A stretch of 64,000 nt of DNA, from the IMG/VR virus record IMGVR_UViG_3300028601_000030, positions 1 through 64,000 of that record; one strand, 5' to 3'. A model generated the notes under the pieces. That model was not told where the DNA came from, ran no database searches, and saw only the letters and a list, made by a program, of their open reading frames with translations. The position numbers and the translations under genes were made by a program. Each line of letters begins with the position of its first letter. Position 1 is the first letter of the stretch. The DNA comes from a virus. Its lineage: Duplodnaviria; Caudoviricetes. Below, one piece after another: positions 7,039 to 48,317 of the stretch.

Positions 7039-7307
7039 TGATAGATCTTAACGAAGTAGACGAGGTGGTTACGACTCTAAGAGATGAAGTATACCAAACT
7101 TCAGGTTGTTGTGAATATTTTAATTTGTTCGGGCAATTTGCAGACGGTGAAATATTCATAGAGTTTTTAGGAATCAACATCTGGAATACAGTTGATGATG
7201 ATCGGGAATACATTGACGAAGACAATGATATTCGTGTTCCATTGGAAGATCACTTACGTAAGAGAATAAATGAGGAAATCGCTAAGGTATCTAAAATAAA
7301 ATTATAA
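7035..7307 (+). CDS. Hypothetical acidic protein
   Basis: ORF with overlapping stop/start in operon. Confidence 0.65.
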   Translation: MMIDLNEVDEVVTTLRDEVYQTSGCCEYFNLFGQFADGEIFIEFLGINIWNTVDDDREYIDEDNDIRVPLEDHLRKRINEEIAKVSKIKL

Positions 7308-7319
7308 CGGGAGGAAAAA

Positions 7320-7916
7320 ATGGGTTCTCAGTTCGTACAGCCAGAAATTCCAGAAATTGAAGAAAAGTACACTAAGGAGTATTTTCAAAAGCGTAGACGC
7401 AACATCCGACAAGAACTTGGAGTAATAGAAGCGAATCATGTTGTTAATGGAGGAACTACTGATTTAGTTTCAAACCTACTCACTCGGAAACATGCGGTTG
7501 AATTGTTGGAAGCAAAACACATGACTACCATTTCTAAGAAAGTCAATTTTGCTTCCGCTCATTTCTTGCCTGAACATCCTGGTAAATGTCGAAATCTCCA
7601 TGGACATGAATGGACAGTTGAAGTTGCTATTGAAGCTCCTGTAACAAAGTCTGGAATGGTTATGGATTTTGGTACATTGAAACAAATTCTAAATACTTAC
7701 GTGGTTGAAAAGCTTGACCATGCTTTTCTAAATATGCTGGTTGTTAATCCTACAGCAGAAAATTTGGCGATGTATATCTGGAACATTCTCCAATACGAAG
7801 CTGAATTGAAATTGATCACGTACATTCGCTTGTGGGAAAGTCCCAATTCAATGGTCGAATTGATAGAGAAGCAGATGCAGTATGCAACTCGGGGCATGTG
7901 GGATTGGGAGGTTTAA
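7320..7916 (+). CDS. queD: 6-carboxy-5,6,7,8-tetrahydropterin synthase with about 70-aa N-terminal extension
   Basis: FASAHFL...CRNLHGHEW, GMVMDFG, LDHAFLN, PTAENLA, WESP motifs. Confidence 0.95.
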   Translation: MGSQFVQPEIPEIEEKYTKEYFQKRRRNIRQELGVIEANHVVNGGTTDLVSNLLTRKHAVELLEAKHMTTISKKVNFASAHFLPEHPGKCRNLHGHEWTVEVAIEAPVTKSGMVMDFGTLKQILNTYVVEKLDHAFLNMLVVNPTAENLAMYIWNILQYEAELKLITYIRLWESPNSMVELIEKQMQYATRGMWDWEV

Positions 7917-8576
7917 ATGGAACCAGTTTATTCTGTAGTGGAATTTTTTGAATCTATTTCAGGAGAAGTAGGAACAACAATCCCGCAAGGTGAACGTACT
8001 TGGTTTCTGCGATTTGCTGGATGTTCTTTGCAGTGCAAATGGTGCGATTCTCAGCATTCTTGGAACTCTGCAAGCAAGAGGATAACTCTGATAGATTTGA
8101 TGGACGATATTGCATTTGCTGCTCCTACAAATCTGATTGTTACTGGTGGTGAACCTTTTGAACAACCACACATTTATAAATTTTTTGATACATTGTGCAA
8201 GACAGAAATCAAGAACATTGCTGTTGAAACGGGTGGTGTAGAAATTGATGATTTTTTCCTTTTGCATAAACGTGGAAGGATCAGTATAATCGCCGATTAC
8301 AAACCCAGAAGTGCTGGTATAGAAAAAGAACACAACACCCTTAATTATGACTATTTGCGGTCTGAAGATGTTGTAAAGTTTCCTGTTGCCACTGATGAAG
8401 ATTTAGATGAAGCTATCAAAACGTGGCAACATTTAGCATGGAATGAACACGGACCAAAATTTGCATTTACACCAATATTCCCTATGACAGCCGAAAAATT
8501 GTTTGAGCGTCTACGCTGTTTCCCCGATTCTTTTAGAATAAACGGGCAGTTACATAAATATTTCGGACTTGCTTGA
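7917..8576 (+). CDS. queE: 7-carboxy-7-deazaguanine synthase (radical SAM)
   Basis: FESISGE, FLRFAGCSLQCKWCDS, VTGGEP, VETGG, QLHKY motifs. Confidence 0.92.
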   Translation: MEPVYSVVEFFESISGEVGTTIPQGERTWFLRFAGCSLQCKWCDSQHSWNSASKRITLIDLMDDIAFAAPTNLIVTGGEPFEQPHIYKFFDTLCKTEIKNIAVETGGVEIDDFFLLHKRGRISIIADYKPRSAGIEKEHNTLNYDYLRSEDVVKFPVATDEDLDEAIKTWQHLAWNEHGPKFAFTPIFPMTAEKLFERLRCFPDSFRINGQLHKYFGLA

Positions 8577-8584
8577 TTTTTTTC

Positions 8585-8613
8585 TTGACGTACACAGCGT
8601 ATATGTATAGATT
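8585..8613 (+). promoter_or_regulatory. Sigma70-like promoter
   Basis: TTGACG-17nt-TAGATT in the gap after queE. Confidence 0.6.
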
Positions 8614-8648
8614 ATGTGCATGATGTTAAAACAAAAAGAGAGGTTGTC

Positions 8649-8810
8649 ATGGAGAAGAATTTTGAAATACCTACCCTTGAGTGTAAACGATGCGGGCACG
8701 AATGGGTACCTAGGGTAAAAGTAATCCGCACCTGTCCAAAATGCCGTTCCCCTTATTGGGACACACCAGCGCAATCCACAAAGAAGGAGAAAGAAAATGA
8801 CCTACAATGA
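8649..8810 (+). CDS. Small zinc-ribbon protein
   Basis: CKRCGHEWVPR...CPKCRSPYW; GAGG RBS. Confidence 0.75.
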   Translation: MEKNFEIPTLECKRCGHEWVPRVKVIRTCPKCRSPYWDTPAQSTKKEKENDLQ

Positions 8811-9294
8811 TCTGAAAACTGCGGTCAAGGAACTGAACGATCTGACGCTTGAAGGGCTAGATAAGCTCAAAACTGTCGGACTTCGCAAAGAAGTTCTTCT
8901 GGAGAGTTTTCTCCGTTCAGTTGAGAAAGTAGATGATCTCGGTAAAACTGAGGAGCTTCCCGCTTCCATCATCGAAGCGTACAACTGGTTCTCCAAGAAC
9001 GAAATGGAAGAATCCCCCAGTGCGAAAAAGGGAGCTGGACAAGCAAAGAAAAAGTCCATCAAGAAGTCTCGGTATGGTCACGTTCAGAGTGCCGTGTCTG
9101 GTAAGTTGGATGATATGTTGTTTGAAGGTGCAACCATTGCTGATGTGATGCAGGCGCTGGAACTGAAGCGTACTCGCGTCATTGGTCATATCAAGCATCT
9201 GAAAAATGACAAAGGTCTTACCTTCATTGAAGAAAAGCCCGCAGATGGTAAGCTGAATGACACCTTCTACCGTTGCAAAGAAGAATCTGCATAA
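8797..9294 (+). CDS. Putative DNA-binding protein (C-terminal wHTH-like)
   Basis: AAGGAG RBS; C-terminal GATIADVMQALELKRTRVIGHIKHL. Confidence 0.6.
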   Translation: MTYNDLKTAVKELNDLTLEGLDKLKTVGLRKEVLLESFLRSVEKVDDLGKTEELPASIIEAYNWFSKNEMEESPSAKKGAGQAKKKSIKKSRYGHVQSAVSGKLDDMLFEGATIADVMQALELKRTRVIGHIKHLKNDKGLTFIEEKPADGKLNDTFYRCKEESA

Positions 9295-23624: not shown

Positions 23625-23727
23625 TATATCAGCACACATTTTACAAATAAAAATCAAATACACCGCGCGAGAATAGCGGGAATCGTTATTTCTTGTAGCC
23701 CACTTGCTCGATAGAAAGGTTTGCTCT

Positions 23728-26106
23728 ATGTTGAATCGTAGATCAAAAGGCGAAAATGATGCAGCAGTGGAAAACATTCAGAAAACTGAAAAGAAAATTC
23801 CTAAAGTTGCAGATAATTATGTATCGGTCGATAAAGACACTCTGCTTGTATCCACAGGCTCTACTCTACTTGATCTTGCTATTTCTGGTGGACGTGTTCG
23901 GGGTGGGGGAATCCCTGGTGGAATCATGTGCGAAATCTTTGGACAAAGTTCCGCCGGAAAATGTATTACAGGCAATACGCAAATATTAACGGATAAAGGG
24001 CAATATGCCATCGAAGACTTCTCTTCTGGGGAAGAGGGGTTTGTCGAACATCGGATGAAAATAGTTTCCGATTCTGGTATTGAAGATACTTCTCATTTCT
24101 ATGAAGAGGAATCTTCTGAAGTTATCCAAATAACAAATACTCTTGGTATGGATATAACTGGAACTCCAGAACATCCTATACTTTGTTATTGTGCTGGTGG
24201 TATATCTTTTAAAAAATTATCGGATATCCATATCGGTGATTTGACTTGTATCCCCAGAGAATTAGGAATTTTCCCAAAAGATAATTTCTATATTGCTTTT
24301 AAAGATCCAACAAGACAAACATCTGCAACGAGGACATTGGTGAATATTCCGGAAAAACTTACCCCAGAACTTTCTAGGCTACTTGGATACCTAGTAGCTA
24401 ACGGTTGTGGAAAGGATAATCTTATTGGGTTTTCATCGAAAAATAAGAAAATTCGAAAAGATGTAATATCCATTTGTTCTTCATTAGGAGTAGAATGCGG
24501 AAAACTAGAAAAGGGCAAAGATTTTGGTATTAAAGGAAGAGTTTTTCGAAATTTTATTGACTACTTGAATGGAGAACCTTTCCAAAAATCCAGAACAAAG
24601 AAAATACCAGTATCTGTTTTACAATCGAATAGAGAATGTCAACGCCAATTCCTTCTTGGTTTATTCGACTGTGATTCTTGGTATGATTATAACTGCACGT
24701 TTGAATATTATACGGCAAGTAAAATGTTAGCCGTACAAGTACAAACGATGCTCCAAAATTTTGGTATTTTATCTGTGCATGGTGAGAAATATTTGGAAGA
24801 ATATGAGCATACTTACCATTCTATTAAAATACCAGCGTGGGGGGTAGAAAAATTCTATGAGCTGTTCCCAGATTCCATTAAATATGAATGGCATAAAAGG
24901 GAATTTCAAAAGGATTTTAATCGACTACCAATTAATAATGAGCTTCGTAATTTAGTAGATTCTATAAGAAAGGAGTTGGGGGTAAAAAATAACGGTGCCT
25001 TTCTTTATAAAGGACTTAGTGGTCGTTTTCAATTATTAAAAGGTGTTCCAGATCAGTTTTCCAAACAATCGGATAATTACAATGCAAGACATCTTCCAAT
25101 CATTTTAAAAAATGCAAAAAAATTACCACAAGTAGATTCCGTAAAAAGTTTAATAAATTTTGTTACTCAACTTATTCCTTATTTCTTATCACCTGTAACA
25201 AAGGTTAAAGTAAAAAAAGAACCAACAATGGTTTACGATTTTACGATACCAGAAACACATAAATTCTTTAGTAATGGGTATATTTCTCATAACACAGCAA
25301 TCCTTACAGAAATAGCTGCATCTATTCAAGATAGAAAAGGTGATGTTTTCTTTGTTGATCCTGAAGCCCGCATAGATAAAGAGTACAGCAAGATTTACGG
25401 GTTTGAAATGAACAAAAATAATTATGCCCGTTGTGACACTGTTACCGAGACATTCGACCTTCTTGAAAAATGGGCACCTGAGAATCCAAACAAAATCAAT
25501 TTGTTTGCGGCGGATTCAATAGCAGCTCTTTCTACTGATATGGAGATGGGAGAAGGTGACAAGCGTGGACAAAGAAAAGCAAAAGAATTGTCCGAAGGTT
25601 GCCGGAAGACTGCTCGGCTTATTGCTCACAATAATAAGCTTGTCATTTTTACCAACCAAGAACGTGACGGAGAATATGGTAAAACAACCCCCGGCGGTCA
25701 TGCCATCCCGTATCACTGTTCGCTCAGGATGCGAGTCTCACGGAAGGGCAGAATCGAAAAGAAAAAGACGATTGCTTCAGGAAAGGCTGTCACTAAGACA
25801 ATCGGCATTGAGTCGGAGGTGCTGATTAGAAAATCTACCGTTGATGATGAATACAGAACAGCCCCTATTTTCATAATCTTTGGTGTAGGTATTGATGATG
25901 TCCGTGCAAATCTTCAGTACGTAAAAGACATGGAGAAGCTTACCAAATATTGGTGTGTTGACACTGAATATGTTTCCATGGACAAAGCTATCACGTACAT
26001 TGAAGACAACGATCTGGAAGAAGAATTACGTGAACGTGTGATTGATATTTGGGAAGAAGTTGAAGCCAAATTTACTATGGAACGCAAAAAGAAAAAGAGG
26101 TTTTGA
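23728..26106 (+). CDS. recA: RecA/UvsX-like recombinase with an intein (about 348 aa spliced)
   Basis: STGSTLLDLAI, GGIPGG, EIFGQSSAGK|T, FVDPEAR, DSIAAL, FTNQ, TTPGGHAIPYHCS. Confidence 0.93.
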   Translation: MLNRRSKGENDAAVENIQKTEKKIPKVADNYVSVDKDTLLVSTGSTLLDLAISGGRVRGGGIPGGIMCEIFGQSSAGKCITGNTQILTDKGQYAIEDFSSGEEGFVEHRMKIVSDSGIEDTSHFYEEESSEVIQITNTLGMDITGTPEHPILCYCAGGISFKKLSDIHIGDLTCIPRELGIFPKDNFYIAFKDPTRQTSATRTLVNIPEKLTPELSRLLGYLVANGCGKDNLIGFSSKNKKIRKDVISICSSLGVECGKLEKGKDFGIKGRVFRNFIDYLNGEPFQKSRTKKIPVSVLQSNRECQRQFLLGLFDCDSWYDYNCTFEYYTASKMLAVQVQTMLQNFGILSVHGEKYLEEYEHTYHSIKIPAWGVEKFYELFPDSIKYEWHKREFQKDFNRLPINNELRNLVDSIRKELGVKNNGAFLYKGLSGRFQLLKGVPDQFSKQSDNYNARHLPIILKNAKKLPQVDSVKSLINFVTQLIPYFLSPVTKVKVKKEPTMVYDFTIPETHKFFSNGYISHNTAILTEIAASIQDRKGDVFFVDPEARIDKEYSKIYGFEMNKNNYARCDTVTETFDLLEKWAPENPNKINLFAADSIAALSTDMEMGEGDKRGQRKAKELSEGCRKTARLIAHNNKLVIFTNQERDGEYGKTTPGGHAIPYHCSLRMRVSRKGRIEKKKTIASGKAVTKTIGIESEVLIRKSTVDDEYRTAPIFIIFGVGIDDVRANLQYVKDMEKLTKYWCVDTEYVSMDKAITYIEDNDLEEELRERVIDIWEEVEAKFTMERKKKKRF
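23962..25293 (+). mobile_element. Intein with LAGLIDADG endonuclease inserted in the RecA P-loop (444 aa)
   Basis: Starts CITGNTQI; ITGTPEHPI; LLGYLVANG and FLLGLFDCDS; ends VYDFTIPETHKFFSNGYISHN followed by Thr. Confidence 0.95.
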
Positions 26107-34973: not shown

Positions 34974-37229
34974 CTAACTCCCGAGATACTTCATAACGGA
35001 AATATCTTGATAAACTCCAGGACGCTGGGAACTAACAGCAACCGACTGCACTTGCCCTCTCCAAGTTACTCCTAAATCAGTAACAGAAATAAGCATTCCT
35101 GGAATAAGTAATCCTGGATTATCGAACAACGGAGCTTGGATATTTACAATCTCTCGCGTTCCACTGTCCGCCAATATCTTCGCGCCTAATTGTTGTGCTG
35201 CGTAAACATCAGTTATAAGTGGGTCTGTTACCATCTGCGGTTGTTCAGAACCATCTGTACCAGTACGTTTTATCAAACAAGACACACCTTGATTCTGGCC
35301 ACTAACGTACACACCATTGTATTGTACTTGAGAATTATGGGTTACACCTTTATTTTGATAGCTTGGCAAGGAAGCATCAATTATAGCTCCTCCCCAATCC
35401 CAAGGCAAAGTGGCATATCTTGGAAGTAAACTGATAATCGTAGTGTTCGGTGCGCTCTGCACAATTCCCCCGGCAGCCGCGGCAATCGTCACCAATTCTT
35501 GTATTGGTGTTTTATCCGTCACGCTGTAGACATTTGCTGGAACTAACCAGTCATTCAACTGCCAATCTACAGTAAAACCTGTGTTCAAAATCGCTTCTTC
35601 CGCGAGCTGTACCGCTTGTCTTTGACTCGATTGTACGTAACTCTTAGGTCTTACGTAAGGAGCAGCAAGCTGTGCGCTAGGACTGCGGCCTGAGATTGAA
35701 TAAGTGCGCTGTCCGAACGCTCTACTCTCGCCATAGTCTTCAATTATGAATCGCCACTTGTTTCCATTGATTGTGGCTTCTACTTCAACCGGTGAGCCAG
35801 AAGGCACTACAAGGTCGAGGTCTTCTCGTCTTCTTAAATTTGCTTTGAATCCCCAACACCAATTATCTAATGAACCTTCAATGCTCATGCTTTGAATTGG
35901 TATAAGGGCGCTATCTGAAACTCTCCGCAGAGTGACGGTATTCATAATTATGTAATAACTCCTTATATCAGCTTTTGGTGTAGGTTTTATGTAATCATCA
36001 TCTGGGTTATAATCGTACTTGTCTTGAGGACCGGTTCTGTATCCATCATAGCAAACTTCATCGTAATTTGAAGTCTTATCTTCGAAGTACAATGGAAATT
36101 CCAGCATTCCCCGACTTGTCACATTCAGCGTTGCACCTATGCTACCACGCATTTCAATTTTGGTGTTGTCTTTACCTATTGGTCTATAACCAAACATTCC
36201 ACCTGAAGGGAATGAATAATACCGATTCTCTGGTGCAGGACTTATTGATAGTGGTTCAGGTAATCTTATGTACTCCTGTGGATTTATTTCAAATGCAACC
36301 TCAGAGAAATATTGACTTGGTACTTGGTCTTTTTCAGAATCCCAGACAAATACAACTTCACCATAAGCTGTTTCCCAAGTACGTTCACACCATTTAGGAA
36401 ACCAATTAGGACCACTATATATTGGTATCTCTCTATCTTTTGGGTCTGGGTGGGAATAAGCAAACACGTTCTTTATATCGTGTAAGGCTTTGAATTGGTC
36501 CCAAGGTACAACTTTTCCGAAATCTTTAAATTCAGGTGCTGTGTATCCATGGGAAATGTCATGGGCCAATTCTTTAACAAACTTATCCCAAAGAATATGT
36601 TTCTCTAAATCCTTTGTTGCTGGTGAGGTATATCCAGTTGCAACATTACTTTCGTATTGGTTAATTAAATCTTGGAAAGATGCAATCGTTTCACGATCTT
36701 GTTTTGGAATGAAATCCCACAAACTGCTGAAGTGTCGGAATAGATCATCCATCGCACCCCAAGGAATAATCTTCTCTTTTGCATTATTTATTGGAGCACT
36801 ATTTGAAGGAGCACTTATTTGAGGATCAAGCAGGTTAAATTTATTCCAAGGGGCTTTAACCTCATTCTTGTTTGGTTGGCGAACAAACCATGACGGTGCA
36901 AGCTCAGATTCAATGCCCGTGAAGCCAGATATACCTAACGTTATGTTTACGTTGGTTTCCCCAAGGAGAAGTGAATCCGTAAGCTCTGCGGCATTTCCTT
37001 CTATCGTCCCTAACGCTTCGGCAACCCAAGGAATGAGTAAAAGTTCTGGTGTGCTTGCTGATACTGTGATGCTATCGACAACATGCCATGACGTAGAATC
37101 CAGAACGGCTTCGTTTCCAGTGACATTGATTGCCACCGGATATGAAAACCACCCAAGCAGAAGGATTATATCAAATTCTGTAGGGGTAGCCGATACTGGA
37201 TCTTTTGTTATGGTTTGTCGGCTAAACAT
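34974..37229 (-). CDS. Tail tip / hub structural protein
   Basis: 751 aa; C-terminal half IMNTVTL...WCWGF...GRSPSAQLAAPY...DW typical of siphophage tail tip proteins; N-terminal W-containing 28-29 aa repeats. Confidence 0.7.
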   Translation of the reverse strand: MFSRQTITKDPVSATPTEFDIILLLGWFSYPVAINVTGNEAVLDSTSWHVVDSITVSASTPELLLIPWVAEALGTIEGNAAELTDSLLLGETNVNITLGISGFTGIESELAPSWFVRQPNKNEVKAPWNKFNLLDPQISAPSNSAPINNAKEKIIPWGAMDDLFRHFSSLWDFIPKQDRETIASFQDLINQYESNVATGYTSPATKDLEKHILWDKFVKELAHDISHGYTAPEFKDFGKVVPWDQFKALHDIKNVFAYSHPDPKDREIPIYSGPNWFPKWCERTWETAYGEVVFVWDSEKDQVPSQYFSEVAFEINPQEYIRLPEPLSISPAPENRYYSFPSGGMFGYRPIGKDNTKIEMRGSIGATLNVTSRGMLEFPLYFEDKTSNYDEVCYDGYRTGPQDKYDYNPDDDYIKPTPKADIRSYYIIMNTVTLRRVSDSALIPIQSMSIEGSLDNWCWGFKANLRRREDLDLVVPSGSPVEVEATINGNKWRFIIEDYGESRAFGQRTYSISGRSPSAQLAAPYVRPKSYVQSSQRQAVQLAEEAILNTGFTVDWQLNDWLVPANVYSVTDKTPIQELVTIAAAAGGIVQSAPNTTIISLLPRYATLPWDWGGAIIDASLPSYQNKGVTHNSQVQYNGVYVSGQNQGVSCLIKRTGTDGSEQPQMVTDPLITDVYAAQQLGAKILADSGTREIVNIQAPLFDNPGLLIPGMLISVTDLGVTWRGQVQSVAVSSQRPGVYQDISVMKYLGS

Positions 37230-37240
37230 TCTTTATCCCA

Positions 37241-37402
37241 TTAAATAGGTTCTACTTTTGAACCTTTTTGACCAACCCATACATTTTTGTCTCTGGTATT
37301 ATCCGTACACACATATAACTCCCCACCTTCTAGGTCTTGCCATAGATAGGGAGTTACTGGTGGATTTACATAAATATTTGGTGGTCTATTTGCAGTTATC
37401 AT
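37241..37402 (-). CDS. 53-aa short paralogue of the shared anchor domain (not in the ORF track)
   Basis: Hand translation MITANRPPNIYVNPPVTPYLWQDLEGGELYVCTDNTRDKNVWVGQKGSKVEPI. Confidence 0.75.
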   Translation of the reverse strand: MITANRPPNIYVNPPVTPYLWQDLEGGELYVCTDNTRDKNVWVGQKGSKVEPI

Positions 37403-37421
37403 AATTTATACCTTTATACCT

Positions 37422-38249
37422 TTATATATTGTCTGCACGTTCATGAACATAAATCTTGTCTGAACCATTATCACAACTGATCAGGTTTGTTCCATCGAAA
37501 GTCAATCCTGATGGATATGATGATGGTGATGAAAAGGATGTTAAAATGTTTTGGGAAACACCATCATGAACATAAATCTTTTTTGAATCATAATCACAAC
37601 TGATCAGGTTTGTTCCATCGAAAGTTAAACCATATGGATATCGTGATGGTGATGAAAATGATGTCAAAATGGTTGAAGATATTCCATCATGAACATAAAT
37701 CTTTTTTGAATCACTATCACAACTGATCAGGTTTGTTCCATCGAAAGTTAAACCTCTTGGATATCGTGATGGTGTTGAAAATGATGTTAAAATTGAACTG
37801 GAAACACCATCATGAACATAAATCTTTTCTGAACCATTCTCACAACTGATCAGGTTTGTTCCATCGAAAGTTAAACCTCTTGGATATCGTGATGGTGTTG
37901 AAAATGATGTTAAAATTGAACTGGAAACACCATCATGAACATAAATCTTTTCTGAATTATAATCACAACTGATCAGGTTTGTTCCATCGAAAGCTAGTCC
38001 TGATGGATTTGATGATGGTGATGAAAATGATGCCATAATCTGCCCATGAGGCAAAGAATAATACCGTACCATTGTACCTAATTGACCAACCCACACATTA
38101 AAATCTGGAGTGAGGTCAGTACAAATAAAAATTTCCCCGGTAGACAAATTCAGCCATGTTTTGCCAATTCTACCGGGGTTTACTGTAAGCGTTGGATTCT
38201 CTTTGTATATGTAATCGAAACCAGAAAAAGGTCTTATTTGATCAATCAT
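37422..38249 (-). CDS. Anchor domain + five 41-aa beta-propeller-like repeats (paralogue 3)
   Basis: NPT..VNP...WLNLSTGEIFICTD followed by 5 x SFSxPSxxPxGLTFDGTNLISCDxxSxKIYVHDGVSxxILT. Confidence 0.85.
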   Translation of the reverse strand: MIDQIRPFSGFDYIYKENPTLTVNPGRIGKTWLNLSTGEIFICTDLTPDFNVWVGQLGTMVRYYSLPHGQIMASFSSPSSNPSGLAFDGTNLISCDYNSEKIYVHDGVSSSILTSFSTPSRYPRGLTFDGTNLISCENGSEKIYVHDGVSSSILTSFSTPSRYPRGLTFDGTNLISCDSDSKKIYVHDGISSTILTSFSSPSRYPYGLTFDGTNLISCDYDSKKIYVHDGVSQNILTSFSSPSSYPSGLTFDGTNLISCDNGSDKIYVHERADNI

Positions 38250-38261
38250 GGGAAACTCCTA

Positions 38262-38477
38262 CTAAGAAACACTTGTACCGAAATTACCTTTCCATACATT
38301 AGCATTCCTTGTATTGTCTAGGCAAACAAATATCTCACCAGTTAAAGTGTTTAGCCAGGTAGCATATAAAGATGATGGATTGATATCTATAGTTGGAAGA
38401 CCAGCATATACATAATCATACCGGTCTGCCCATGTATGCACTATTTCTTGTTCTGGTATATTTCCTATATAATTCAT
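38262..38477 (-). CDS. Short paralogue of the anchor domain
   Basis: LPTIDINP...WLNTLTGEIFVCLDNTRNANVWKG. Confidence 0.8.
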   Translation of the reverse strand: MNYIGNIPEQEIVHTWADRYDYVYAGLPTIDINPSSLYATWLNTLTGEIFVCLDNTRNANVWKGNFGTSVS

Positions 38478-38487
38478 AAATCACCTT

Positions 38488-39375
38488 CTATGAAGGGGTA
38501 AATTCAAACGGAGCGTAAGTGGATACTTGCCCATCTATCCTAGCATGAACATAAATCCTTTTTGAATCATAATCACAACTGATCAGGTTTGTTCCATCGA
38601 AAGCTAAACCTATTGGAGTTGTTGATGGTGATGAAAATGATGTTAAAATGTTTTGGGAAACACCATCATGAACATAAATCTTGTCTGAATTATAATCACA
38701 ACTGATAAGGTTTGTTCCATCGAAAGTTAGTCCATATGTATATGTTGATGGTGTTGAAAATGATGTCAAAATGTTTTGGGAAACACCATCATGAACATAA
38801 ATCATGTCTGCACTATTATCACAACTGATCAGGTTTGTTCCATCGAAAGTTAAACCTATTGGATTTGATGATGGTGAAGGAAATGAAGTCAAAATTGTTG
38901 AAGAAACACCATCATGAACATAAATCATGTCTGAATAAATATCACAACTGATCAGGTTTGTTCCATCGAAAGTCAAACCTGTTGGACGTGATGATGGTGA
39001 TGGAAAAGATGTTAAAATGTTTTGGGAAACACCATCATGAACATAAATCCTTTTTGAATTATAATCACAACTGATCAGGTTTGTTCCATCGAAAGTTAAA
39101 CCTCTTGGATATGTTGATGGTGAAGCAAAGCTTCTTTCAATGGCTTCTTGTGGCATTGAATACACTGCAATCAAAGTTCTGTAAGTACCTTTCCAGATAT
39201 TTGCACCCAATGTATTATCTAGGCAAACAAATATCTCACCAGTTAAAGTGTTCAACCATGTCATGTTGAGAATGGGCGGATTTACATCTATAGTGGGATT
39301 ATCCGTAAAAATGTAATTATGCGGCAATCGCTGCGACATATTTACCATTCTGTAATTTTGTTTGCCTAGATACAT
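38488..39375 (-). CDS. Anchor domain + five 41-aa repeats (paralogue 2)
   Basis: NPTIDVNP...WLNTLTGEIFVCLDNT followed by 5 repeats. Confidence 0.85.
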   Translation of the reverse strand: MYLGKQNYRMVNMSQRLPHNYIFTDNPTIDVNPPILNMTWLNTLTGEIFVCLDNTLGANIWKGTYRTLIAVYSMPQEAIERSFASPSTYPRGLTFDGTNLISCDYNSKRIYVHDGVSQNILTSFPSPSSRPTGLTFDGTNLISCDIYSDMIYVHDGVSSTILTSFPSPSSNPIGLTFDGTNLISCDNSADMIYVHDGVSQNILTSFSTPSTYTYGLTFDGTNLISCDYNSDKIYVHDGVSQNILTSFSSPSTTPIGLAFDGTNLISCDYDSKRIYVHARIDGQVSTYAPFEFTPS

Positions 39376-39557
39376 TATGAAACCTCCCCATCAATATATT
39401 TCCATACGACATTGGTTGGGTTATTATTTACACAAGTAAATAATGCACCTGTTTCCGTATTCAACCAGATAAACGGTATAAATGGAGGAATATCTTCATG
39501 CGTTGGATTTCTAGTCGCTGCATAGTGGCAGATATTTTGAGCTTCTTGTTTAAGCAT
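39375..39557 (-). CDS. Short paralogue of the anchor domain
   Basis: NPTHEDIP...WLNTETGALFTCVNNNPTNVVW; TAATG coupling at both ends. Confidence 0.8.
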   Translation of the reverse strand: MLKQEAQNICHYAATRNPTHEDIPPFIPFIWLNTETGALFTCVNNNPTNVVWKYIDGEVS

Positions 39558-40432
39558 TATCCCACCGTTGATATATAAGAACGCCAATAAGGAACAACTT
39601 GCCCATCCTCCCTTGCATGAACATAAATCTTGTCTGAAGCACTATCACAACTGATCAGGTTTGTTCCATCGAAAGCTAGTCCTGATGGATTTGATGATGG
39701 TGATGAAAATGATGTTAAAATTGAACTGGAAACACCATCATGAACATAAATCTTGTCTGAACCACTATCACAACTGATCAGGTTTGTTCCATCGAAAGTT
39801 AAACCTCTTGGAGATGATGATGGTGTTGAAAATGATGTTAAAATGTTTTGGGAAACACCATCATGAACATAAATCCTGTCTGAACCCGGGTCACAACTGA
39901 TCAGGTTTGTTCCATCGAAAGCTAGTCCTGTTGGAGATGCGGATGGTGATGAAAATGATGTTAAAATGTTTTGGGAAACACCATCATGAACATAAATCCT
40001 GTCTGAACCCAGGTCACAACTGATCAGGTTTGTTCCATCGAAAGTTAAACCTGATGGATATGATGATGGTGATGGAAAGGATGTTAAAATGGTTGAAGAA
40101 ACACCATCATGAACATAAATCCTGTCTGAACCACTATCACAACTGATCAGGTTTGTTCCATCGAAAGTTAGTCCATATGGAAAAGTTGATGGTGAAGGAA
40201 ATGATGTTACTACAGAGTATTTAGGTAAGGAATATGCCATGATAATGGTCTTATACGAACCTCTCCAAGAATTTGCATCTATGGTATTTTTAGTGCAGAC
40301 AAACAATTCTCCTGTGGTAATGTTCATCCAAGTTGCGTACTGCTTTCTTGGATTTACATCAATTGTAGGATTACCCTTACTCACATAATCGAACTGTGGA
40401 CCTTCCATTATATGTTGTTGCATGAGGCCCAT
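39557..40432 (-). CDS. Anchor domain + five 41-aa repeats (paralogue 1)
   Basis: NPTIDVNP...WMNITTGELFVCTKNT followed by 5 repeats. Confidence 0.85.
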   Translation of the reverse strand: MGLMQQHIMEGPQFDYVSKGNPTIDVNPRKQYATWMNITTGELFVCTKNTIDANSWRGSYKTIIMAYSLPKYSVVTSFPSPSTFPYGLTFDGTNLISCDSGSDRIYVHDGVSSTILTSFPSPSSYPSGLTFDGTNLISCDLGSDRIYVHDGVSQNILTSFSSPSASPTGLAFDGTNLISCDPGSDRIYVHDGVSQNILTSFSTPSSSPRGLTFDGTNLISCDSGSDKIYVHDGVSSSILTSFSSPSSNPSGLAFDGTNLISCDSASDKIYVHAREDGQVVPYWRSYISTVG

Positions 40433-40753: not shown

Positions 40754-42046
40754 CTATCCAAGAGCAATAACCATTGCCACGATGTCTGCATTGGTTGCTA
40801 CAGAACTTCCCGGCACAACTACAGCAGAAAGGTCTGTGATGTTCGGTTCATTGGGTTCTGAATAAATATCAGTCAAGCTTGTATCGCTCAACGATGACGC
40901 ATAGATGTTGATTCCCGCTAAATTTAACACGCAGAAATCACTTTCACCATTGATTTTGTACCCTAACGCTAAGTTGTTAGTGGGAGTCGTTGTTTTAATG
41001 CTTGCTGTGAGAGGCGTTTCCGCAACACCATTCACAACCAGATTTAAATCTGTTCCATCATAACGCAATGCTACATGGTATTCAGTAGAAGCAGAAATTG
41101 CTTTGGTGATAGTTTGCTCAGTGTCTGTATCATCAAGCACAGCAACTACAAGGTTTCCTGTAGCTGTGAGTTTCATGTGCAGATAACCATCAGTATCAAG
41201 TCCTGATTGATTACTGAGGAAAACACCATCTGCAAGGGTGTCGGCTGTTTCCATCCAAAACGTTAAAGTGAATGGAGCAGAATGATCTAATCCAAAATCG
41301 GTCAAGGTGACTTTACTGCTTGTTCCATTTAATTGAACACCATCACCAGCAACTCCGTCTTTCTTCCAGCGCAGACAATCGACACACACGGCATCTTGGT
41401 ATCCTGATGCGTTTCTCCACACATCGTTGAAAAACATGTCACTTTTAAATGTTTGTCCTGTGGGAACTGGTGTGTCTGGTTCTGTATGAGTAGTGGTATA
41501 TTGCCCTATAGCGATGAACTCTACTTGTTGGCCAGCAGTAAGCCCTGTATTGAAAACAACCGTTGCTCCATCAACTGCGGAATATTCAGACTCAGCAACC
41601 AATTTACCATCTACATAAACTTCAAGTGAACCACGAATATATATGTGGTCAAAAGTAGTTTGGCCTTCTGTAGCAATCTGGTAACCACGATTGAAGGTGA
41701 CATTACCTTGGTTTATTACAAACCCAGCTATGTGGTCAAGTGCTGCGGCTGTTGCTGTGTTGAAGATGGTCTTTGAACCAGCTGCCCAAGGAACTTTAAG
41801 ATCATTGTTGGAACTAGCAAGTATGGTATCTCTGGTAAGTGTGGTTGAAGTGCCTACGATTATCTGACCATAACCAATTTCCCAATTATCTAAACCTTCA
41901 CAGCAGTAATAGCACCACTCACCGTCACCGATACCTTCTACAAATGTTCTTTCAAGAGGATCAGTTGTTCCTTCAAGAACATAATCAGAAGAACCTTCGG
42001 TAGTGGTTGCTTCACGAACTCTGTCACCGTATTTCAGTAAGGCCAT
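40754..42046 (-). CDS. Tail fibre-like protein with a LamG/concanavalin-A-like domain
   Basis: N-terminal DRVREATTTEG fibre motif; ATEGQTTF...VYVDG module; C-terminal FTLTFW...YHVALRYDGTDLNLVVNG. Confidence 0.75.
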   Translation of the reverse strand: MALLKYGDRVREATTTEGSSDYVLEGTTDPLERTFVEGIGDGEWCYYCCEGLDNWEIGYGQIIVGTSTTLTRDTILASSNNDLKVPWAAGSKTIFNTATAAALDHIAGFVINQGNVTFNRGYQIATEGQTTFDHIYIRGSLEVYVDGKLVAESEYSAVDGATVVFNTGLTAGQQVEFIAIGQYTTTHTEPDTPVPTGQTFKSDMFFNDVWRNASGYQDAVCVDCLRWKKDGVAGDGVQLNGTSSKVTLTDFGLDHSAPFTLTFWMETADTLADGVFLSNQSGLDTDGYLHMKLTATGNLVVAVLDDTDTEQTITKAISASTEYHVALRYDGTDLNLVVNGVAETPLTASIKTTTPTNNLALGYKINGESDFCVLNLAGINIYASSLSDTSLTDIYSEPNEPNITDLSAVVVPGSSVATNADIVAMVIALG

Positions 42047-43297: not shown

Positions 43298-44229
43298 TAC
43301 CAAGGTCCTGTTATGTCAAAGAAAACTACACCTTCATCATCAGATTCATTATCTGAATCATAGTGAACACACAAATAAGATTTGCCTGTTTCAGGGTCAA
43401 CATGTACATCCTGATGATTCATTGGTTTGTATGCGAGCGGTTGGTACATACCCCGCAATTTACCACGTACTAATTTTAAACCCTTTTCTGTAGCTGTGTC
43501 ACAAGCTACATAGCATGGAGAAAGATAAAAACCTAATCCGGTATTCGCGCTTTCTAGGCTAGAGAAATATCGCTCATTCCCCATTATGTGGGCTCCGCCA
43601 ACAGACACAATATGTCCATTAGGTGCAAATTCACCACTTGCAGAACGGTGAAACTCTAAACCATATGTACCAGCACCAACAGCATTTGTATAATGCAGGC
43701 CTAATGTTTCATCGTCATCTGGTAGAGAATTTGAGTCAGCATGTCCAGAAAAGAAACTGTTGTAAGGGTCATTGGGCATTATCGAATGAAATTCACCAAA
43801 ACCATGAATTATATTTCCATAGTATCCTTCCAAAATCACATAGCATGTTTTTTCGTCGGCAAGGACTATCCAGTTTGCAGAATCTACCGTGGTGTGTTGC
43901 TTGCCGAAATAATCTTCTCCCCATTGACCAATCATGTCTCCGTCAACAAGAGCTAAAGATTCCCCAGCGTACATATAAGCAACATCAGGATCGTCCATAT
44001 TATCATTGACTTGGTATACCTGACGAGCGTCACCAGTCAATGAGCGAAATGCAGCGTAGTTATTCGCTTCTTCGAATATTTCTTCCCAACCAGCACCAGC
44101 TATAGTTGTATCCCCAAGCGTCCAACCAGTGACAAGGCATTTACGCAATAGATCTGCCATCGAGCCGCGTTTACTGTTTGGATGTGCTGGGGCTCCAGTC
44201 AAACCAGAATGAAAATACTTGACTCCCAT
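43297..44229 (-). CDS. Tail protein
   Basis: VKYFHS...GAP...GSMADLLRKCLVTG...AGWEE...RGKLRG family pattern. Confidence 0.7.
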   Translation of the reverse strand: MGVKYFHSGLTGAPAHPNSKRGSMADLLRKCLVTGWTLGDTTIAGAGWEEIFEEANNYAAFRSLTGDARQVYQVNDNMDDPDVAYMYAGESLALVDGDMIGQWGEDYFGKQHTTVDSANWIVLADEKTCYVILEGYYGNIIHGFGEFHSIMPNDPYNSFFSGHADSNSLPDDDETLGLHYTNAVGAGTYGLEFHRSASGEFAPNGHIVSVGGAHIMGNERYFSSLESANTGLGFYLSPCYVACDTATEKGLKLVRGKLRGMYQPLAYKPMNHQDVHVDPETGKSYLCVHYDSDNESDDEGVVFFDITGPW

Positions 44230-46319
44230 CAGTTCGCATCTCCTCGTATTTGCAGTACGAAGTTATCAGTAGGATTAGTAACTTCACCTTGCATTGTAGT
44301 TCTTGCAATCCAAACCGGATAGTTTGCTGCTGAAGTATCAAATCGGATGTTGTTTCCTGTTGCCCAACCAGAACCCCAACCATTAGGATCAATCGTAAAA
44401 TACGGAGCACCTGTAGCCGGATTTATTGGGGCTATTGGATTCGCAATGTTGTATTCTCCAATAATACCGAATGTTTCGCCAATAACTTGAATTGAGGAAG
44501 AACTGGTGAATTTCAAACACCATCTTTGATTCGCTGAACCTTCATTGGTGATAATAAACGGATAGTTTACTGTGTCATATTTTGCTGAAGTGCTGCTACC
44601 TGAAATAGAATCTCGCCACACACTATCCCATGTTTTCTGATGGAACAAACGTGTCACACGTCCAGCAAGGTCGCCAAGAATAAGTGCCGTAGAAAGCTGT
44701 GTGCCTGTCGCAGGGTAGTTGTGTGTTATTGGGCCTACGGAAGTCAAATACCCGTTGATTTGGGCTTCAGAAAGCAGGAGCATATCTTCTATTCGATGAT
44801 TCACCATCACATTCTCAGCATTGCCATTTGTATAACTATTCAATTGGGAACCATTTACTACAGTCAATGTTCCAGCAACAAGATCAATTGTGTAAATAGA
44901 ACGATCATCAGGAATGATATTTCCTTCATAATCATACACATCAGCAATGGATAATCTGTCTCTGCTCAAAGTTATTACTTGGCTGTCAGAAAATGGCCCA
45001 GTTCCAATTGCTTCTGATAGTGTATGATGAAGAACAACCACATCACCAGATTTAAAAATAGGTACCCGACCATCAGAAGGCAGTCTAATTGGTTCAATAC
45101 CAATAAGAGTAGAATCAAGTGGAAGAGTCCTTATACCTACGCAGTTATACATCGCAGTCTCAGGCATGAGACCAATAGGCTCCCAGATAACACCACCTTC
45201 TTGAATCATATCTACTGCGTACCAAGGTTCTTCTTCGTTGCCTTCTGCAAGTCGCCAACGTCCAATATCTAAGCGCACAACACCAGTTGTTGAATTGATA
45301 GTGCCCCGCATCGAAGGAAGATAACCAGACCCATCAAAAACTATTTTATCCTGATTATTTGCAAGTGCGGATAGTTGTGAGCCGTCGAGCATTGATCCAC
45401 GAACACTGAAAGAACCTGCAAGTAGCGGGGCAGAAGGAGTACGAAACACATACGAACTAGGAGGATTGCCTTGAAATCTAGCTAAACCACCAAGAATAGA
45501 AACCTTCGGACTTGTTATCTGGTCATATTGCCCAATAACGACCTCACCAGTTTTATAGTTTATGCTTCCCTTGTCCACACCAGCACCGGTTTCTGGGTCA
45601 AAATCGGTGACTACCCTGCCGTTACGATCATAATATATATCACTATCAAAAGAAAAAATTACACTGCCAGGAACCAGTTTTTGCGTTGAATGCGGGGTAA
45701 GGCTGAACTTTACTGGCAAAGAATTAAAATCTTTAGTCACTGTTCCTGCAATAAAATCACTATCATCTACGTATGTCGCAATCACTATATCCGGGTTAGG
45801 ATCTGTGCCTGATATTGTAGTAGATTGAGTAACCGTGGTGGTCGATTGCTCTTGTATATACGTTGGTTCATTGTTGTATGTAGCTGCAATCCCGCCTGCT
45901 GCATCTGTTTCTGGAGAAGAAGGCAACTGAGCCGGAGGTTTTTCTGTAGGTCCGCCAGACTCAAGCGCAAGGTACACGGATGCAGCCTTCTCCGCAATAT
46001 ATGCAGCCAATTCATCACTACCTGCTGCTAAATACCTGTCACGCAGTTCTATCAATCTATCATAATCCAGCTGTACTACATAATGGTCTACCTCTCTTCT
46101 TCTGCTCTCTTCCCACGCCGCCGATTCTTCTTCGGCAGTATTATATCCACACGTATAATAAGCAGATGCAAACCTGTGTATGAACACAAAACCATCTTGT
46201 TCAGGCCGCCCATCATCAACCTCTTGTTGTATATATCGACGATACTCGCCATTTACGTCATATCTAACCACTTCCATGTATTTTGGGTTTATTGGCGCAT
46301 ATCCGGGTGCTGCTGACAT
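44229..46319 (-). CDS. Tail tip structural protein (C-terminal-half type) with an unrelated N-terminal extension
   Basis: LPLDSTLIGIEPIRLPSDGRVPIF, HRIEDM, NPATGAPYF, GSGWATGNNIRF, FVLQIRGDAN. Confidence 0.75.
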   Translation of the reverse strand: MSAAPGYAPINPKYMEVVRYDVNGEYRRYIQQEVDDGRPEQDGFVFIHRFASAYYTCGYNTAEEESAAWEESRRREVDHYVVQLDYDRLIELRDRYLAAGSDELAAYIAEKAASVYLALESGGPTEKPPAQLPSSPETDAAGGIAATYNNEPTYIQEQSTTTVTQSTTISGTDPNPDIVIATYVDDSDFIAGTVTKDFNSLPVKFSLTPHSTQKLVPGSVIFSFDSDIYYDRNGRVVTDFDPETGAGVDKGSINYKTGEVVIGQYDQITSPKVSILGGLARFQGNPPSSYVFRTPSAPLLAGSFSVRGSMLDGSQLSALANNQDKIVFDGSGYLPSMRGTINSTTGVVRLDIGRWRLAEGNEEEPWYAVDMIQEGGVIWEPIGLMPETAMYNCVGIRTLPLDSTLIGIEPIRLPSDGRVPIFKSGDVVVLHHTLSEAIGTGPFSDSQVITLSRDRLSIADVYDYEGNIIPDDRSIYTIDLVAGTLTVVNGSQLNSYTNGNAENVMVNHRIEDMLLLSEAQINGYLTSVGPITHNYPATGTQLSTALILGDLAGRVTRLFHQKTWDSVWRDSISGSSTSAKYDTVNYPFIITNEGSANQRWCLKFTSSSSIQVIGETFGIIGEYNIANPIAPINPATGAPYFTIDPNGWGSGWATGNNIRFDTSAANYPVWIARTTMQGEVTNPTDNFVLQIRGDAN

Positions 46320-46331
46320 TATATTTCTCCT

Positions 46332-48317
46332 TTATGCGTTCGGGTTCCGAACCCAATCGGTGCTGATTTTGGTTTCCGTCCATGTTTGTTCATAATTATA
46401 TACGCCTGTCGGGTCTAGCGTGACCGCGCGTGTAACATAATCCACTACACCGACGGTTTCACCGGTGGATGTGTTGGTCAGCACCCCGTACATATCATCT
46501 CTGGCTTTCATTTTTACGAGGTTTTTGAGGCTGCCTTGCGGCCCGGCGGAAATCGTGCGTTCTACATACCATTCAATCTCTACACTGCCGGGGCGAATGC
46601 TTGTAGTTTCATCTCCCAGCGTGAAGCTGGTGACACTCGAAAAGGCTTCGTATTTGGTGGAGTTTTTCTCAGCTGATACGGTGAAAACAGTATCTGATGA
46701 TGGAAAAACGTTAGGCTCAAAGAGGATTATGCCGTTGGTATAAGCTATTGCCCCTGTGCCATCGCCAGCAAGTTCATATGTGGTAGTGGTATCGTCAGCC
46801 AGTAAATCGGTGCCCCATTCAACCGTGACGGTTCCCGGTTTTATGTCACCTTCGCCTAAATCCATCACGTATTCTATAGAGGTTGTGTCAGATGAAGGTG
46901 CAAGATCTTTCACATCATCGAACTTACCCCATTTGACGATAATTGAACTGCCGACGTCGGGCAAGGCGCCGAGGGTAAGAACCAGTGAGCCTGTCCAGTA
47001 ATCTATGGTACCGGAGCCGGTATTTTCTAAATCGGGAACTAGCTTGCCGTGACCATCGTCACGGATTCTGTACCACTTGCCTTGTGCCATGTAGTCTATA
47101 ATAAGGCTATTAGGTGCTGGGTATGGATCTATGAGTGATGGCACGTAATTGTAAGCGCGATTTGCCAGTTTAATATAAATTTCTTTAGTAACACTTGAGT
47201 TGGCTATTACCGCGCCGAGGTTTACGCTTATCTGTGCACTAAACGCCACAGTATCTGGTGGAGTAATACTTATCAAACCTTGTGCGTAGTCAACAAATCC
47301 AGAATATCCTCCATTTGTAGCATCTTCTCCAACTATCAAAGAGCCATTCAAATCGGAAAATTCTGCCATCGTTGTTCCAGATTTAACAATTTTTACGCTC
47401 ACTGTTCCTCTAGCAATAGCTCTAGGGCAATGCGCTGAAGTAAAAGTTCCAGAAGACATGGCAACGGTTGTCGAATACCGATGATGAAGATCCAAAATCA
47501 CTGAAGTATCCCCACCAACCATTTGGTCCACAAATGCAGTTTCTTGGCGCGACACAGGAACTAATTGGTTGTAGATACTATCTACTTGGACATGAAATTC
47601 ACCTTGATTCACTGTTTGTGTAACGTTTGAAACACCGTAATATTTTGCTGAATCTGTAACCACTGTTGCATGGATTCTGGAATCCGCTTTAGTTGCATAC
47701 GGGGTTGCTTCCAATCCAGGAAAATCATAAAGTAGTGCCGCGGAAAGTTCTACAGTTAGCCTAGAAACAGTAAAACTGCCATAGCTTGGCAAAACAAACT
47801 CAACCTCAGTTTGTGCAATATCAATTATTCGAACATATTGGTAATTACCGGTATTATAATTTTTTATAACAACCGTATCGTTAATTTCTGGAGCTTCCGT
47901 TCCAGGAGGGGCAAATAGGGCGACTGCTCTTTGTCCTTTAAGTTGATCATTAAGAGGGCGCCAAATCAATTCATGTGCTATGGACAAATAAGATTCTACT
48001 TTGTCCCGGGCATCTTGACGAATATCAGTAAAGTCCCTACGAGAAAACATGGTTACATAAACATTATCATCGTCAGGGGGGTCTGTAACAATGACATGGG
48101 CGCCGTAATACATGTCAGAATTTGCAGTTATTACTGCGGGAAATGCTTTCCGAAGAGAAACACGACCGTAGGTTCGATCTAGTCTGGAAATGTCAGAGAA
48201 CAGATTATTTAACTCACCAGAAACAACCTCTTGTCCGGTCATTGCTCCGCCGCCATCATAGAAATCTGTCAATCTCTCAGAGGCGAGCAGTTTTATATCC
48301 GTTTTTTTAATAGCCAT
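46332..48317 (-). CDS. Tail tip structural protein (N-terminal-half type)
   Basis: DIKLLASERLTD..DGGG...NNLFSDISRLDRTYGRVSLRK, YYGVS, YMAQGKWY..RDDG.G. Confidence 0.75.
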   Translation of the reverse strand: MAIKKTDIKLLASERLTDFYDGGGAMTGQEVVSGELNNLFSDISRLDRTYGRVSLRKAFPAVITANSDMYYGAHVIVTDPPDDDNVYVTMFSRRDFTDIRQDARDKVESYLSIAHELIWRPLNDQLKGQRAVALFAPPGTEAPEINDTVVIKNYNTGNYQYVRIIDIAQTEVEFVLPSYGSFTVSRLTVELSAALLYDFPGLEATPYATKADSRIHATVVTDSAKYYGVSNVTQTVNQGEFHVQVDSIYNQLVPVSRQETAFVDQMVGGDTSVILDLHHRYSTTVAMSSGTFTSAHCPRAIARGTVSVKIVKSGTTMAEFSDLNGSLIVGEDATNGGYSGFVDYAQGLISITPPDTVAFSAQISVNLGAVIANSSVTKEIYIKLANRAYNYVPSLIDPYPAPNSLIIDYMAQGKWYRIRDDGHGKLVPDLENTGSGTIDYWTGSLVLTLGALPDVGSSIIVKWGKFDDVKDLAPSSDTTSIEYVMDLGEGDIKPGTVTVEWGTDLLADDTTTTYELAGDGTGAIAYTNGIILFEPNVFPSSDTVFTVSAEKNSTKYEAFSSVTSFTLGDETTSIRPGSVEIEWYVERTISAGPQGSLKNLVKMKARDDMYGVLTNTSTGETVGVVDYVTRAVTLDPTGVYNYEQTWTETKISTDWVRNPNA

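Follow-up and report, generated by a model that had tools for sequence, protein, structure and literature searches.

Tandem Propeller Blades in Three Putative Tail Proteins of an Uncultured Phage: Indications of Homologous Recombination and of Selection on One Face

The window analyzed here is the first 64 kb of the 79.6-kb IMG/VR virus record IMGVR_UViG_3300028601_000030, which CheckV rates as about 67% complete; its minus strand carries three neighboring genes, designated A (291 amino acids (aa); 39557..40432), B (295 aa; 38488..39375), and C (275 aa; 37422..38249), that together encode 15 propeller blades, five per gene, each of exactly 41 aa or 123 nucleotides (nt). The reading that we favor, with a probability of about 0.68, is that A, B, and C are receptor-binding propellers that evolve by ordinary homologous recombination together with diversifying selection. 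The three proteins would be paralogues with a receptor-binding role in the distal tail of an uncultured siphovirus-like phage, each docking by a short N-terminal adaptor and presenting a five-bladed propeller of an uncharacterized NHL/YVTN-like repeat family, in which closure of the last blade by an N-terminal strand is likely. The 15 blades would form one pool of direct DNA repeats on which general homologous recombination acts, by unequal crossover and by gene conversion, both inside single genes and from one of the three genes to another, with the RecA/UvsX-like recombinase of the phage as a possible catalyst. Such exchanges would keep the scaffold homogeneous, reassort segments between blades, and change the number of blades, and diversifying selection would preserve amino acid differences at about six positions per blade, in the strand 1-strand 2 and strand 3-strand 4 loops, on a face that is probably the surface for ligand (glycan) binding. 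The arrangement is a likely route to altered host recognition without a reverse transcriptase.

Results

Anatomy of the Blade Repeats

An initial annotation of this DNA had described five 41-aa repeats in each of three tail-region genes, a description borne out by the open reading frames (ORFs) and the layout of the units. Gene A encodes an N-terminal adaptor of about 67 aa, five blades (array 40231-39617), and a 19-aa tail; gene B, an adaptor of about 72 aa, five blades (array 39159-38545), and a tail; and gene C, an adaptor of about 64 aa, five blades (array 38057-37443), and a 6-aa tail. Tandem Repeats Finder detects three arrays with a period of 123, each at 4.7-4.8 copies and 86-88% matches. 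When the 15 blades are aligned by codon, codons 23-31 (FDGTNLISC) are one nucleotide string except for a lone CTT, codons 38-41 (IYVH) have the same nucleotide sequence in all 15, and the DGV codons that follow IYVH are identical in 11 of the 12 blade junctions. The most variable codons are 16, 17, 19, 33, and 34, with lesser variation at codons 4-6 (the discrete haplotypes SQN, SSS, and SST), 12-13, 22, and 36-37; all of the positions previously named as variable (16, 17, 19, 33, 34, 36, and 37) are included, and 4-6, 12-13, and 22 are additional. It had also been stated that the framework is almost invariant even at synonymous sites. This holds for the blocks formed by codons 23-31 and 38-41, in which synonymous variation is significantly depleted relative to other framework codons, but not elsewhere: ten framework codons have purely synonymous polymorphisms, and pS, the proportion of synonymous differences, is about 0.2 in strand codons outside the two blocks.

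Two adjacent tracts of 117 nt in blades C2 and C3 (37717-37833 and 37840-37956, minus strand) are exactly identical, in agreement with the initial annotation, and the two blades differ at 4 nt overall; these tracts are the most recent duplication or conversion in the array. The blade DNA encoding SSNPSGLAF, noted earlier as common to genes C and A, is found to be a 71-nt exact run shared by blades A5 (39644-39714) and C1 (37962-38032) on the minus strand, which spans hypervariable loop 1. As a separate observation, an 8-bp palindrome, CTGATCAG, encodes Leu-Ile-Ser in every blade but one, and its 14 copies in the 79.6-kb genome, where about 1 is expected, all lie within blades. The tetranucleotide GATC is under-represented in the genome (181 observed compared with about 291 expected from base composition).

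Recombination and Concerted Evolution of the Blades

There is no positional orthology of blades between A, B, and C; the nearest relatives of A4, for example, are C5 (8 differences), B2, and B5. For the 12 full blades, the pairwise homoplasy index (PHI) test gives p ≤ 0.0002 at three window sizes, and 60% of pairs of informative sites are incompatible; among pairs of purely synonymous sites, 6 of 15 fail the four-gamete test. Long common tracts connect blades of different genes, and the A5/C1 tract of 71 nt, which takes in 22 polymorphic sites in a row (p 0.006 by pairwise permutation), is a candidate intergenic conversion tract. The haplotypes of loop 1 and loop 2 are reassorted among blades, the dipeptides YN, YD, NG, and SG each being found with differing loop 1 sequences, and multinucleotide haplotypes (SQN/SSS/SST; GGA-CTA versus GGT-TTA) are present in all combinations across the genes.

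The extent of homogenization matches that of the repeats. Among the three genes, the adaptors are 49-57% identical in nucleotide sequence and the first nine codons of blade 1 are 44-52% identical; at codon 10 of blade 1, identity switches to 85% in the repeat part, and it is 33-54% in the C-terminal tails. Comparison with L007, a fragment of a related phage on a 1-kb short-read contig (JGI 3300031339), extends this pattern between genomes. L007 has the same layout as the window from the end of gene A through the small ORF a' into gene B, and its B-like adaptor best matches the adaptor of window gene B, yet blades share 87% identity inside the window and 85% inside L007, against 70% (maximum 76%) when the two are compared, with genome-specific fixed synonymous differences at codons 11, 14, and 41 (TTT/TTC, CCA/CCT, and CAT/CAC). 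Thus, N-terminal domains pair as orthologues across genomes while blades cluster by genome; identity is likewise higher within than between genomes in L008 and in L016, so that clustering by genome is seen in four genomes. The gene array is therefore older than the split between the window phage and L007, and its blades have been homogenized separately in each, which indicates concerted evolution. The PHI result, the sharp jump in identity at the repeat borders, and the clustering of blades by genome alongside orthologous N-terminal domains all support the earlier proposal that gene conversion or recombination homogenizes the scaffold.

Variable Loops and Selection

In a four-stranded meander, the loops between strands 1 and 2 and strands 3 and 4 lie on one face of the propeller, and the connections between strands 2 and 3 and from strand 4 to the next blade lie on the other. 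The strands of the 41-aa unit, assigned by a DSSP map, are at positions 7-12, 18-23, 28-32, and 37-41, and the regions compared for pN/pS, the ratio of nonsynonymous to synonymous variation, were set by this map and not by variability, to keep the test noncircular. The ratio is 5.0 (codon bootstrap 2.5-20) in loops 13-19 and 33-36 of the one face, 0.67 in the loops of the opposite face, and 0.17 in the strands. These values support the view, put forward as a point to check in the initial annotation, that the variable residues share one face of the propeller, the face being assigned from topology in a predicted model. The residues used at the variable positions are mainly Ser, Tyr, Asn, Thr, Asp, and Gly, which are typical of binding sites. 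In 43 of 45 instances, codons 17, 33, and 34 end in T while positions 1 and 2 vary, an NNT pattern that is attributable to low neutral divergence combined with selection on the amino acid. The same positions vary in relatives: in 113 blades of other family members, the highest entropy is at positions 17, 33, 19, 34, and 16, and the variability profiles of the window and the family are correlated (Spearman rho 0.72). The design of a scaffold with a variable face consequently belongs to the family as a whole.

Fold and Repeat Family

The AlphaFold2 model, based on a 54-sequence alignment, has a mean predicted local distance difference test (pLDDT) score of 88.6, with values of 96-99 over residues 70-275, and contains twenty strands, four per unit; in this predicted model, five four-stranded antiparallel blades are closed into a toroid, as in a five-bladed β-propeller. 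The nearest structural neighbors of the propeller are bacterial or plant glutaminyl cyclases, 3NOL among them, and the best sequence matches in the PDB are the highly repetitive Nostoc propeller 2YMU and the WRAP designs (E 2e-8). A BFVD fold search returned only uncharacterized phage proteins and giant-virus WD40/NHL proteins. The NHL/YVTN/lactonase-type families used for comparison were Pfam PF01436, PF10282, and PF08450, and no Pfam, PHROG, or NCBIfam model covers the repeat. Pfam matches of gene C to Mtd_N, He_PIG, and CUB are sums of weak repeat matches with no single stretch that passes and were disregarded; those to Mtd_N come from the IYVHDG motif added up over the repeats.

An exhaustive HMMER scan for the repeat found 5,480 representative clusters with E ≤ 1e-3, or 2,055 if E ≤ 1e-10 is required; many of them are parts of proteins of 1,000-6,000 aa. 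Internal blade identity in the family is a continuum from 0.4 to 0.83, and five is the canonical number of blades in relatives. It should also be noted that the FDGTNLISCD propeller is sometimes trailed or replaced by a second type of repeat, with the motif YQYSLST.FD.STASY and a period of about 45 aa, which was seen in P0021, a 488-aa protein from a Flavobacteriaceae metagenome-assembled genome, and at 6928-7779 of L017 (NCBI GCA_942490675.1). These repeats appear to be a second unannotated propeller family that uses the same adaptors.

A Blade-number Variant

L006, an independent contig assembled with k = 141 (ENA ERZ27247324), encodes P0001, a form of gene A with 250 aa. Its global alignment with the window over 12.6 kb shows zero substitutions and a single 123-nt gap that corresponds to the loss of blade A3 (39888..40010, minus strand); in gene B, in the small ORFs, and in most of A and C, the two sequences agree base for base. 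The breakpoint falls within a 61-nt exact repeat, the longest intragenic one in gene A (39827-39887 and 39950-40010). A repeat of this length should not collapse at k = 141, which favors a real deletion allele, and it is this interpretation of the sequence towards which we lean. The longest exact repeat, of 117 nt, is also shorter than k, which, with the base-for-base agreement, makes gross misassembly unlikely. The B-like gene in the 1-kb contig L007 is a second case with four blades. Exact 27-mer scans gave 0 matches in viral contigs and only the L007 contig in metagenome contigs, so that no population repertoire could be assembled. The initial annotation had proposed that the binding loops are reshuffled into a combinatorial repertoire: the reassorted haplotypes and the one blade-number variant are suggestive of this, whereas neither a population repertoire nor a dedicated system was found.

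The Adaptor Array in the Window and in Relatives

In the order of the minus strand, 5' to 3', the array consists of A, a', B, b', C, and c', all of which begin with a common domain of about 50 aa (motif NPTIDVNP...TWLN..TGE.FVC.DNT..N.W.G) and are preceded by Shine-Dalgarno-like motifs; only A, B, and C run on into five units of 41 aa. The adaptor-only ORFs are a' (39375..39587; 60 aa from the ATG at 39557, or 70 aa from a TTG), b' (38262..38477; 71 aa), and c' (37241..37402; 53 aa, with the Shine-Dalgarno-like motif AAGGT), all on the minus strand. Modeled alone with AlphaFold2, the adaptor b' has a pLDDT of 76.5 and no fold match in the PDB. At both the A/a' and a'/B junctions, stop and start overlap in the sequence TAATG. 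The ORF b' ends in TAG TAG, and this double stop (38250-38264) is in frame with C and three codons away from it, so that the junction looks either once fused or deliberately insulated. Read-through of TAG to fuse b' with C was considered and rejected on three grounds: TAG terminates 7 of 35 long frames, two stops stand in succession, and C is provided with an AGGAG ribosome-binding motif of its own; TAG is an ordinary stop in this genome, and recoding of stop codons is not indicated.

Copies of the N-terminal adaptor are syntenic across window positions 37241-40432, L017 positions 6054-9082, and L007 positions 1-520, and the C-terminal modules that they carry vary by genome, being a propeller, another type of propeller, a β-sandwich-like domain, or none. 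In L017, the orthologue of adaptor A carries a nonpropeller domain, that of a' is fused to a different type of propeller (in L007 it is kept as a stand-alone gene), that of B stands alone with 69 aa (in L007 it is present as the B-like N-terminal domain), and that of b' carries a five-blade propeller with strongly diverged blades. Since the modules on orthologous adaptors vary, ORFs that are adaptors only in the window are orthologues of full-length fiber genes elsewhere, and vice versa. The adaptors thus constitute a conserved row of sockets, which acquire and shed binding modules from one related phage to another. The strict alternation of long and short ORFs is particular to the window phage.

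A separate phage lineage, represented by L016 (8001-11312), has three tandem paralogous propeller fiber genes (363, 362, and 372 aa), in which the adaptor and propeller are placed behind a fiber N terminus homologous to that of a 430-aa protein of the window with a Laminin_G_3 domain; the first 90 aa of the latter are homologous to the N termini of the three L016 propeller proteins (BLASTP E 2e-12). The first L016 gene contains two perfectly identical adjacent blades, and a blade of the third has a Gly-rich loop insertion. The fusion of propellers to fiber N termini in L016 and the presence of other modules on the adaptors in L017 support a tail context. Neither megablast with the 10-kb region nor tblastn with gene A matched any of 50,697 GenBank phages, and there is accordingly no cultured relative or annotation to draw on. 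An IMG/VR search for relatives through the 751-aa tail protein downstream of the array found none, and an exact cluster look-up of proteins A, B, and C found none of them in the collection.

Genomic Setting

The structural genes are on the minus strand and include those for a head protease, the major head protein, the tape measure protein, and distal tail proteins; the tape measure protein, of 1875 aa, indicates a siphovirus-like tail. The A-to-c' array sits between the tape measure and distal tail genes on one side and a phrog_6079 tail protein and the endolysin on the other, the order on the minus strand being distal tail proteins, a Gp80-type fiber protein, the 430-aa fiber-like protein with a Pfam Laminin_G_3 domain (40754..42046), the array, the 751-aa phrog_6079 protein directly downstream (34974..37229, minus strand; E 1.5e-112), and an M15-type peptidase. 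A tail protein at 44229-48317 (minus strand) is apparently divided between two genes. On the plus strand, 23704..26106 encodes an 800-aa protein with a UvsX/RecA-like recombinase domain at residues 531-760; its N-terminal part is phrog_9666, the function of which is not known, and this fusion gives it an unusual length for a phage recombinase.

Discussion

The interpretation given above has to be weighed against others that would account for the same repeats. It is very improbable that the mosaic blades and the blade count are short-read chimeras of a repeat array: L006 does end inside gene C beside the 117-nt repeat and does differ by one blade in A, and the four-blade L007 is a contig of 1 kb, but two assemblies agree at every base in gene B, in both small ORFs, and in most of A and C, no exact repeat (≤117 nt) is as long as k = 141, and the three reading frames are intact with five blades each, the canonical number in relatives. 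A history in which one blade was amplified recently, the module was copied onto three older adaptors, and only point mutation and positive selection followed is quite unlikely, even though propellers are known to be continuously re-amplified from single blades (PMC9218822, PMC6805158), internal identity in the family extends from 0.4 to 0.83, the L017 propeller is diverged, and C2 and C3 look freshly duplicated. Such a static array does not explain the spatially structured incompatibility found by PHI, which extends to purely synonymous sites; the blades of A, B, and C lack positional orthology, multinucleotide haplotypes occur in all combinations across the genes, and homogenization of the blades has proceeded separately in the window phage and in L007 although the A-a'-B array is older than their split.

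Recombination of a more specialized kind is unlikely, but it deserves consideration. A dedicated system requiring no reverse transcriptase would keep the invariant blocks of 27 and 21 nt as recombination anchors and exchange blades or half-blades frequently as cassettes, giving combinatorial faces in each population. The two blocks do flank the two hypervariable loops exactly and are depleted of synonymous variation relative to other framework codons, the loop haplotypes are reassorted, a blade-number variant with zero substitutions in 12.6 kb exists, and the phage encodes a recombinase domain. Set against these points, there is no specialized recombinase, inverted repeat, or silent cassette store, all of the copies being expressed direct repeats in three genes; the blocks are not conserved at the nucleotide level in L008 and vary synonymously in L007, so that passive homogenization fits better than a selected site; the single structural variant removes a blade where the canonical number is five; and searches of the viral and metagenome collections gave no further variants. 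The 15 blades all lie in the same orientation as direct repeats, as opposed to the inverted repeats of a shufflon, and no invertase was found among the neighboring genes examined, the whole genome not having been screened for serine or tyrosine recombinases. It is similarly doubtful that the blades form an active cassette pool, in which the anchors flanking the loops would let the machinery of the phage itself swap half-blades or change blade number far faster than point mutation. If this were so, new receptor-binding faces would arise in every burst, a recombination counterpart, free of reverse transcriptase, of diversity-generating retroelements (DGRs), and it might be general to a family with several thousand members. 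Least credible of all is that a DGR itself produced the NNT pattern by adenine mutagenesis of AAT codons copied from a template repeat. The retention of a third-position T in codons 17, 33, and 34, the resemblance of the residues Tyr, Ser, Asn, Thr, Asp, and Gly to those of DGR variable regions, and the estimate that only about 67% of the genome is present are consistent with this, but the 79.6-kb record, at that completeness, contains no RVT_1 (PF00078) match, under conditions where positive controls worked, and no blade-like DNA outside A, B, and C. Nor does any blade fit as the template, since no more than 75-80% of the differences fall on A even in the best pairing; of the 31 variable sites, 23 include A among their states and 22 include T, so that there is no adenine bias; C/T and G/C changes are also part of the variation; and, with synonymous divergence so low overall, a conserved third position is to be expected. 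The earlier claim that no reverse transcriptase is required is in keeping with the lack of a reverse transcriptase, template repeat, or adenine bias in the record.

The preferred interpretation, ordinary homologous recombination with diversifying selection, has points against it as well. The PHI and four-gamete signals are open to inflation by recurrent mutation at hypervariable sites, the blade alignment is short (123 nt), and the p values for tracts are pairwise and uncorrected for 105 pairs. If each lineage had recently re-amplified its blades independently, the result would look like concerted evolution; the relative L007 is a contig of 1 kb built from short reads; and the strongly diverged blades of the L017 propeller indicate that homogenization is not constant across the family. 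The one-blade variant could be explained as an assembler error. The assignment of the loops to the same face comes from blade topology and the DSSP strand map, not from measured distances, and location in the virion and receptor binding are deduced from gene position, fold, and modular context. We infer both that exchange is ongoing and which enzyme would be responsible for it.

Retargeting of receptor-binding proteins is central to the evolution of phage host range and to phage engineering, and the known fast routes to it are DGRs, invertible segments, and the exchange of modules between co-infecting phages. The present locus points to a further route, in which an internal pool of blades would be homogenized and reassorted by homologous recombination with selection on one face, and it offers a well-defined case, open to testing, in a phage-associated family that is large but lacks annotation. 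It also draws attention to a propeller repeat family of about 5,500 representative clusters that has no Pfam or NCBIfam model and is recurrently fused to phage fiber and baseplate modules, and to an array of short adaptor sockets whose binding modules are gained or lost from one related phage to the next. With its invariant scaffold and about six variable positions in each blade, the propeller is, in addition, an attractive natural template for the design of binders.

Comparison with Known Systems

The phage adhesins and propellers that have been characterized resemble A, B, and C in part. The receptor-binding protein Gp45 of Staphylococcus phage phi11 (PDB 5EFV), which has relatives in 80alpha and P68, has a five-bladed propeller platform whose nearest neighbor is 3NOL (PMC4901313); it is a baseplate receptor-binding five-bladed propeller of a siphophage with glutaminyl cyclases as structural neighbors, and closure of the last blade by an N-terminal strand has been described for it. 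Its blades, however, are not sequence repeats, and its architecture includes a tower domain and a coiled-coil stem of considerable length; A, B, and C have a β adaptor of about 65 aa and nothing after the propeller. Gp45 was not found by phmmer against PDB sequences and is also absent among the fold matches listed, so that with neither sequence similarity detected nor a stem-platform-tower architecture, the fold class is the sole link. In the gp38 adhesins of T-even phages, exchanges within or near conserved motifs that flank hypervariable segments generate chimeric adhesins (PMC3157838). Here too, conserved motifs, which are glycine-rich in gp38, bracket hypervariable specificity segments in a probable phage adhesin, but gp38 is a single polyglycine-sandwich domain in which exchange takes place between co-infecting phages and not among 15 internal repeats, and there is no concerted evolution of tandem units. 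DGR targets such as BPP-1 Mtd and the tentaclins (PMC10743442) are phage tail proteins that similarly combine a constant scaffold with a few hypervariable positions, rich in Tyr, Ser, and Asn, that contact the ligand; they differ in having a C-type lectin fold where a propeller is present here, and the window phage shows no reverse transcriptase, template repeat, or adenine specificity. Highly repetitive propellers have been documented generally, in a collection with few viral sequences and no mention of phages (PMC9218822); the near-identical blades of the Nostoc WRAP/2YMU proteins reflect recent amplification along a continuum from symmetric to diverged (PMC9218822, PMC6805158), a feature common to the present family, but these are cellular proteins of the WD40 type.

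The closest mechanistic parallel is the HNWD recognition genes (het-d/het-e/het-r) of Podospora anserina, taken as an analogue and not as a sign of family membership. In these ten paralogues, the WD repeats undergo concerted evolution, with positive selection on four positions of each repeat at the interaction face, and deleted, duplicated, and novel repeat units appear in spontaneous mutants (PMC1805685, PMC2873952). The two systems share propeller repeats that are similar in DNA sequence within and between paralogues, concerted exchange, and selected positions on one face, and the one-blade variant suggests that changes in repeat number are a further likeness; in the phage array, as in HNWD, blades are more alike within a genome than between orthologues, and a few codons per repeat have dN > dS on one face, as assigned from topology. 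HNWD proteins are intracellular eukaryotic STAND/NLR proteins with seven-bladed WD40 propellers of 42-aa repeats, to which repeat-induced point mutation may add changes, whereas the phage module is structural, five-bladed, and NHL/YVTN-like; A, B, and C contain no NTPase domain and belong to a different repeat family. A literature search, with subscription journals outside its coverage, found no account of propeller blades that evolve in concert within a tail protein of a phage. The evolutionary principle is already known from the fungal WD-repeat genes and, as motif-guided exchange, from gp38.

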